From the NCBI RefSeq assembly GCF_013122565.1, contig NZ_CP053258.1: a stretch of DNA of 64,000 nucleotides; one strand, 5' to 3'. The stretch is from Escherichia coli (GTDB taxonomy: Bacteria; Pseudomonadota; Gammaproteobacteria; Enterobacterales; Enterobacteriaceae). A program made the position numbers and the translations under genes. Below the pieces are notes generated by a model. That model saw only the letters and a list, made by a program, of their open reading frames with translations. It was not told the origin of the DNA and made no database searches. Shown here piece by piece: positions 1,760 through 1,800 of the stretch (its first letter is position 1; the number at the start of each line of letters is the position of its first letter).

Positions 1760-1800
1760 ATTGATAATTATAAGTGTACCGTGTACATATTGGTAGCTAA
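1760..1800 (-). promoter_or_regulatory. Putative promoter/operator of the toxin–antitoxin pair
   Basis: Minus-strand TATAAT (plus-strand attata at 1767-1772) about 25 nt upstream of the toxin ATG; adjacent tandem GTGTAC-C-GTGTAC(A) motif at 1775-1788 could be an autoregulatory operator; -35 element is weak. Confidence 0.25.

Follow-up and report, generated by a model that had tools for sequence, protein, structure and literature searches.

Of the systems studied by experiment, the operator of the Vibrio cholerae higBA2 operon is closest to the element analysed here. XRE helix-turn-helix antitoxins of the HigA2 fold bind as symmetric dimers, and V. cholerae HigA2 binds its operator as a dimer with a KD of about 25 nM and represses a reporter; its footprint of 24 bp runs from just after the -35 across the -10 and holds the palindrome TGTACGC-N5-GCGTACA (PMC11006873). 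The bases are contacted by Arg68, Glu71, Asn72 and Arg77 of the recognition helix, and structure 8a0x shows the HigB2-HigA2 tetramer on operator DNA (PMC11006873; PDB 8a0w, 8a0x). In Acinetobacter baumannii, the promoter of a plasmid-borne higBA2 pair was found in reporter assays to be repressed by the antitoxin and more so by the complex (PMC5906591). Palindromic operators are also described for MqsA, which has AACCT-N3-AGGTT palindromes in the mqsRA promoter (PMC4894380), and for YefM-YoeB, whose operators consist of two TGTACA palindromes 12 bp apart from centre to centre (PMC1802561). One paper on a nadS gene of K-12 deals with its expression only (PMC12350097). A search of the accessible literature yielded nothing on the E. 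coli cassette described below or on 'NadS' as a helix-turn-helix protein, no TGTAC/GTACA operator for HigA-like antitoxins, and no binding, footprint, reporter or transcription-start results for the subfamily treated here.

We analysed a 64-kb stretch of E. coli DNA, referred to as the window, that carries a gene pair homologous to V. cholerae higBA2, likewise with the toxin first and a single dyad between the -35 and the -10. Judged from sequence comparison, this dyad is with a probability of roughly 85% the autoregulatory operator of a HigB2/HigA2-like operon, that is, of a RelE-superfamily toxin and a NadS-family antitoxin. The kind of element is known, being the autoregulatory operator of a type II toxin-antitoxin operon; what is new is that the operator sequence and spacing differ from those of the one characterised homologue.

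A toxin-antitoxin cassette between envZ and pckA

Two small minus-strand genes are wedged between envZ (plus strand) and pckA (minus strand) in the first 3.6 kb of the window, the toxin gene being first in gene order and the antitoxin gene second. The features of the locus, with the source of each assignment, are as follows.

Stop at 1038, plus strand: 3' end of envZ (sequence and open reading frame)
1041..1070, plus strand: envZ terminator hairpin (terminator scan)
1070..1366, minus strand: antitoxin gene, 98 aa, NadS family, HigA2-like (open reading frame, Pfam, NCBIfam, PDB, model)
1425..1742, minus strand: toxin gene, 105 aa, HigB-2-like, RelE/ParE superfamily (open reading frame, Pfam, PDB, RefSeq)
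1749..1752, minus strand: Shine-Dalgarno AGGA, 6 nt before the toxin ATG (sequence)
1759..1761, minus strand: predicted transcription start, about 7 nt downstream of the -10 (sigma-70 geometry)
1767..1772, minus strand: perfect -10 hexamer TATAAT (direct from the sequence)
1775..1787, minus strand: predicted operator, a perfect inverted repeat (single window match and comparison)
1790..1795, minus strand: -35 equivalent TACCAA, giving a 17-bp spacer (offset of the relatives' TTGAnn)
1814..1841, minus strand: pckA intrinsic terminator, a 12-bp stem followed by a T run (terminator scan)
Stop at 1859, minus strand: pckA (open reading frame)

The toxin matched Pfam RelE (PF06296) and, in the PDB, HigB-2 (5ja9, E = 1.3e-23). 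The antitoxin matched Pfam HTH_3 and HTH_31 and the NCBIfam NadS model at 75.2 bits (cut-off 60), with HigA-2 as its best PDB match (E = 5e-5). An AlphaFold2 model of the antitoxin built from 32 homologues (pLDDT 85) gave HigA2 entries 5jaa, 8a0x and 5j9i as the best Foldseek matches, the C-terminal domain of HigA2 aligning with it at a TM of about 0.8. The protein has its toxin-binding region at the N-terminus and the XRE helix-turn-helix domain at the C-terminus, which is the same architecture as in V. cholerae HigA2, to which it is about 26-29% identical. These matches bear out the initial annotation, which had taken the 98-aa product for a helix-turn-helix protein, and this antitoxin is the presumed operator-binding repressor.

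The pckA terminator forms the upstream boundary of the toxin-antitoxin promoter region and is separated from the toxin ATG by only about 70 bp, so that any dedicated toxin promoter must be there; the promoter that holds the dyad is the only plausible one for the toxin gene. At the other end, the envZ hairpin adjoins the antitoxin stop codon at 1070, and since A and T runs flank it on either side it probably ends both convergent transcription units. The two genes are separated by an untranslated gap of 58 nt (1367-1424), whereas the Vibrio genes overlap by 14 nt. Most Enterobacterales relatives have a gap of 45-85 nt, and the examined loci of Oceanospirillaceae and Psychromonas have one of 10-15 nt; the gap was considered as a second regulatory element and rejected, as both its length and its sequence vary across loci.

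The cassette was found in 1330 of 5426 complete E. coli genomes (about a quarter), always on the chromosome, and RefSeq annotates it in E. coli as a RelE/ParE family toxin and nadS. Together with the pckA hairpin terminator it constitutes an insertion/deletion polymorphism (window 1039-1858). K-12, which is without the cassette, has a 75-bp pck-envZ gap with the same envZ hairpin alone, and strain BS-04 carries a decayed cassette remnant. The pckA hairpin is kept in the Citrobacter and Kluyvera loci, where the cassette follows the same stop-codon-plus-hairpin sequence, and presence of the cassette may therefore be the ancestral state.

The inverted repeat and its promoter register

The sequence GTGTACCGTGTAC, which reads GTGTAC-C-GTGTAC, occupies 1774-1786 with a trailing A at 1787; the initial annotation had given the letters correctly and placed them one base too high, at 1775-1788. 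Within it lies a 13-bp dyad (1775-1787), 33 nt upstream of the toxin ATG, which reads TGTAC-CGT-GTACA on the plus strand and TGTAC-ACG-GTACA on the minus strand, with 5-bp arms around a 3-bp spacer. The pattern TGTAC-N3-GTACA has this one match in the 64-kb window against 0.03 expected, a count that 3 of 100 shuffles also reach, and no further site that might point to a regulon was found in the whole window when one mismatch was allowed. For the tandem pattern with up to one mismatch the expectation is 0.17 (16 of 100 shuffles). Taken from the window alone the motif is thus merely modestly unlikely, and the decisive support is the comparison across loci.

For this comparison, 42 homologous toxin-antitoxin loci were found by toxin alignment in contigs representing one genome per species. 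They came from Escherichia, Citrobacter, Kluyvera, Klebsiella, Leclercia, Yersinia, Photorhabdus, Edwardsiella, Budvicia and Erwinia and, among the more distant ones, from Psychromonas, Alteromonas, Photobacterium, several Oceanospirillaceae and one Pasteurellaceae genome. The results showed that at least one exact GTAC-N3-GTAC stands in the 150 nt before the toxin gene at every one of the 42 loci. Upstream regions totalling 6.3 kb held 71 such sites, against 2 in 216 kb of flanks of the same loci, which corresponds to about 11 versus 0.009 per kb and a more than 1000-fold enrichment. Both GTAC cores are invariant across the 42 loci and the 3-bp spacer varies freely, while 37 of 42 sites keep the outer T before the first core and all 42 keep the outer A after the second, giving a family consensus of R-T-GTAC-N3-GTAC-A-Y, which spans 1774-1788 in the window. 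In diverged upstream alignments the GTAC cores are kept along with the TT of the -35, the T-A...T of the -10, the Shine-Dalgarno sequence and the ATG, and nothing else. The site accompanies the two genes in Enterobacterales, Oceanospirillales, Alteromonas, Psychromonas, Photobacterium and Pasteurellaceae, in any genomic context. Two loci, those of Phytobacter ursingii and Kluyvera sichuanensis, carry a truncated toxin gene (matches limited to residues 1-38 and 1-17, respectively), and no antitoxin ORF was found at either; given that the operator and the -10 are intact there, these look like recently decayed cassettes.

The same alignments bear on what the unit of recognition would be. The initial annotation had proposed a tandem of a palindromic core, and a functional direct repeat of two GTGTAC units with a 7-bp period, bound by repressor subunits arranged head to tail, would fit this allele, which on the minus strand reads GTACAC-G-GTACAC and so forms a near-perfect 7-bp repeat; moreover, GTAC is itself a palindrome, and hence orientation cannot be read from the cores alone. 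However, the spacer and the base after each core vary in relatives, as in TGTACGGGGTACA, TGTACTCTGTACA and TGTACCAAGTACA, and it is the outer bases of the dyad that are kept instead. Since the symmetric outer bases are conserved and the tandem bases are not, conservation picks out the dyad RTGTAC-N3-GTACAY as the unit. That GTGTAC seems to stand in tandem is owed to the chance spacer of this allele, which reads CGT on the plus strand; relatives show no such tandem. Given also that XRE antitoxins of this fold are symmetric dimers on DNA (PMC11006873), we consider a head-to-tail arrangement very unlikely.

The dyad overlaps the core promoter: it occupies the spacer, flanked by the -35 position and a perfect -10; on the minus strand TATAAT begins two bases downstream of it. 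The layout on this strand is TACCAA - TATGTACACGGTACACT (17 bp) - TATAAT - N17 - AGGA - N6 - ATG, and a CAGGA or CAGGGA is kept at the Shine-Dalgarno place in relatives. TACCAA (1795..1790) is a poor match to TTGACA; the alternative -35 CTACCA (1796..1791) would give an 18-bp spacer. Scanning 1000-2000 for consensus promoters gave no call for the toxin-antitoxin promoter, its -35 being too weak, and relatives were used to locate it instead. In the Enterobacterales loci the -35 is mostly TTGAnn at an offset of -9, ending 3 nt before the first GTAC, the 17-bp spacer holds the proximal site, and in most of these loci the -10, TAnnnT, stands at +14 from the first GTAC, 3 nt past the second. The window TATAAT stands at exactly this offset, which backs the promoter call far better than the hexamers alone. 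The initial annotation had reported this TATAAT at plus-strand 1767-1772 and a weak -35, both as found here, and had made the promoter call tentatively; the fixed register of the Enterobacterales loci now strengthens it. With standard sigma-70 geometry, the sequence places the inferred start at 1759-1761. Still, given the poor -35 and the silent scan, transcription could start elsewhere or be very low.

Five loci (one in Escherichia, two in Citrobacter and two in Kluyvera) have the proximal site alone and no TTGA -35. These pckA-linked loci share the ...AAGCTGTAA-plus-hairpin sequence with the 3' end of the window pckA, and their -10 is TATAAT or TATACT, that is, consensus or near-consensus. 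The weak -35 of the window is accordingly explained by its belonging with pckA-linked loci that, having no TTGAnn -35, compensate by a strong -10.

Two sites are present in 29 of the 42 loci, the second lying 29-31 bp upstream in 20 of them and at a distance of 20-42 bp in the other 9; V. cholerae, in contrast to most members of the window subfamily, has one. Most of the loci that do not lie at the pckA site have a TTGAnn -35 flanked by two identical operators at a distance of 29-31 bp (for example, locus L002, 2418-2459). As 29-31 bp amounts to about three helical turns and places both sites on the same DNA face, this spacing suggests cooperative binding of two dimers. The window locus has the promoter-proximal site only, its distal operator having been lost or never having been there. 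A further variant was seen in Oceanospirillaceae loci: besides the spacer site, they have a second one that precedes the toxin ATG by about 21 nt. This one is found past the -10, across the predicted start and the 5' UTR and beside the ribosome-binding site; the same protein-DNA pair would act there in a different repression architecture.

Recognition helix and the likely binder

The V. cholerae palindrome has 19 bp with a 7-N5-7 structure and its GTAC cores are spaced by 13 bp, whereas the window operator is a 13-bp TGTAC-N3-GTACA with arms of 5-6 bp and GTAC cores spaced by 7 bp. The sequence upstream of V. cholerae higB2 was confirmed to read TTGCCA-tc-TGTACGCTTGGTGCGTACA. A comparison by eye with the V. 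cholerae operator, checked against real V. cholerae-type loci, found no fitting 7-N5-7 dyad in the window. Relatives in Pseudoalteromonas, Tolumonas and Photobacterium have TRTACGY-N5-RCGTAYA with the conserved core TACG, and the TGTAC common to the Vibrio and window operators is therefore partly, if not largely, coincidental. The tighter spacing of the half-sites means that the binding geometry is not simply transferable from 8a0w/8a0x. The proteins differ in parallel, three of the four HigA2 contacts being changed: Arg68, Glu71 and Asn72 of V. cholerae correspond to Asp62, Lys65 and Ser66 in the window antitoxin. Arg71, the equivalent of HigA2 Arg77, is the sole contact residue that is invariant across the window and Vibrio types.

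Across subfamilies the palindrome changes with the recognition helix. Forty antitoxins of chromosomal loci that lie beside GTAC-N3-GTAC share the helix S-Y-(D/E)-L-V-(K/R)-S-W-E...RR, whereas a Vibrio-type helix, S-S/A-R-T-L-E/Q-N-W-E-Q-G-R (SSRTLENWEQGRS in V. cholerae), goes with TRTACGY-N5-RCGTAYA in Vibrio, Pseudoalteromonas, Tolumonas, Photobacterium and an Acinetobacter plasmid. Plasmid-borne loci show three pairings.

Klebsiella pneumoniae IncFIA plasmid: window-type helix, with two AGTAC-N3-GTACT sites flanking a TTGATT -35
Acinetobacter baumannii plasmid: Vibrio-type helix, with TATACGC-N5-ACGTACT
Salmonella IncI1 plasmid: third helix type, with TATCCCC-N5-GGGGATA

That the palindrome type tracks the recognition helix across subfamilies points to the cognate antitoxin as the binder, and this covariation is the strongest argument at hand for such an assignment. 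The A. baumannii higBA2 pair, whose repression is described (PMC5906591), is likewise HigB2/HigA2-like, and RefSeq labels its antitoxin NadS as well; the Acinetobacter plasmid locus examined here has a toxin about 39% identical and an operator and helix of the V. cholerae type. With the site present in 42 of 42 loci, in a fixed register and covarying with the helix, the candidate antitoxin operator that the initial annotation had placed over the promoter has strong support from the comparison.

The site might instead serve a different regulator, either the YefM antitoxin or a global or neighbouring one such as OmpR. The window allele holds one full TGTACA hexamer (1782-1787), the hexamer that occurs in pairs in YefM-YoeB operators (PMC1802561), and in both systems a palindromic GTAC-containing core overlaps the -10 of a type II toxin-antitoxin promoter; the locus also adjoins envZ. 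However, YefM requires two TGTACA hexamers 12 bp apart and the window cores are 7 bp apart, the hexamer is missing from most relatives because the spacer varies, and YefM has the Phd/YefM fold, unlike the XRE helix-turn-helix antitoxin of the window. YefM cross-regulation was ruled out by this spacing and by the non-conserved hexamer. Against any other regulator, the motif follows the HigB2/NadS pair into unrelated contexts and onto a plasmid, and it changes with the antitoxin's recognition helix; control by a foreign regulator is accordingly very unlikely.

An inverted repeat inside a promoter spacer could also be a structural or core-promoter feature, such as a DNA or RNA hairpin or a spacer sequence read by RNA polymerase. 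The hairpin of the single-stranded operator is weak (-2.1 kcal/mol, z = -0.87), and its arms are invariant and show no compensatory changes, which together argue for base-specific recognition by a protein and not for nucleic-acid structure. Furthermore, the Enterobacterales site, being upstream of the -10, stays outside the transcript, and in the 29 two-site loci the second copy lies outside the core promoter. A structural role is hence hardly to be expected. A functionless chance repeat, for which the expectation of 0.17 tandem matches in the window might speak, is effectively refuted by the upstream enrichment and by its recurrence at every locus compared.

The 5-N3-5 geometry of the window dyad is already known from MqsA, whose helix-turn-helix is structurally related. 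MqsA operators have the same 5-bp arms and 3-bp spacer, the sites are typically paired over the promoter and the toxin gene comes first; the C-terminal helix-turn-helix of MqsA (3fmy) is a structural neighbour of the window antitoxin model (TMt 0.78), and relatives of the V. cholerae type match Pfam MqsA_antitoxin. The half-site, however, is ACCT/AGGT there and TGTAC in the window. The window antitoxin is without the N-terminal zinc-binding domain of MqsA, having no cysteine pairs in its 98 aa, and scores 31 bits against the MqsA model TIGR03830 (cut-off 61.8); the window toxin is HigB2-like and not MqsR.

Natural alleles and proposed operator function

Over the 71-bp promoter region, the window sequence recurs unchanged in 477 of the 1330 E. 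coli genomes with the cassette; another 743 have 1-3 substitutions or small T-run indels, and 110 have a 7-bp deletion. A handful of alleles among the 743 with SNPs was inspected, and in the five intact-toxin alleles examined the operator and the -10 are unchanged, the SNPs lying in the flanks. The deletion removes exactly one GTACACG operator unit (window 1774-1787), as expected from slippage between two tandem units. Six deletion carriers were examined, namely Nissle 1917, E2348/69 (EPEC), HM670, SFAD3, LTC201 and Z1323HEC0355; all six have the same nonsense mutation in the toxin (Glu22 to stop) and an intact antitoxin, which leaves this lineage with an orphan NadS regulator behind a damaged operator. 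We considered the deletion as independent natural evidence and rejected it, because the shared nonsense mutation marks the six genomes as one lineage and a single event, from which cause and effect cannot be told apart. Relaxed operator constraint after the death of the toxin would fit, and so would toxin loss after de-repression.

Autoregulation would work as follows. A dimer of the 98-aa antitoxin would place each XRE recognition helix on one RTGTAC half-site, with contacts from S60-YDLVKSWE-68 plus R71 and R72. Bound at roughly -27 to -15, the dimer would exclude RNA polymerase and repress synthesis of both toxin and antitoxin, and the promoter would open as the antitoxin level falls. The toxin-antitoxin complex probably binds too, by analogy with the V. 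cholerae HigB2-HigA2 tetramer (8a0x), and at two-site loci two dimers would probably bind cooperatively. Given its single proximal site and poor -35, the window promoter is expected to be weak and singly repressed.

A more far-reaching interpretation joins the operator and its alleles. It posits a compact, MqsA-like operator class for the HigA2 fold, in which a dimer with a re-wired recognition helix would read half-sites that are nearer to each other, by about 6 bp, than those of the solved V. cholerae complex, and a slippage-prone, perfect 7-bp Escherichia tandem that would end in an unrepressed orphan NadS. On this account the deletion would have become fixed in the Nissle 1917/E2348/69 lineage with the toxin knockout, and the orphan NadS may have gained other targets. 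We regard this combined account as unlikely.

As a predicted autoregulatory operator of the HigB2/HigA2-like pair, the element follows the standard concept of type II antitoxin autoregulation, and the gain lies in annotation and an experimental handle and not in a new principle. It supplies a precise, testable operator, RTGTAC-N3-GTACAY, in a fixed promoter register, for an uncharacterised chromosomal toxin-antitoxin system that many Enterobacterales have, pathogens and the probiotic Nissle 1917 among them. In addition, it extends the one solved HigA2-operator example to a recognition table in which three helix types pair with three palindromes, and such a table could be used to predict the operators of NadS/HigA2/MqsA-like antitoxins and possible cross-talk among them.
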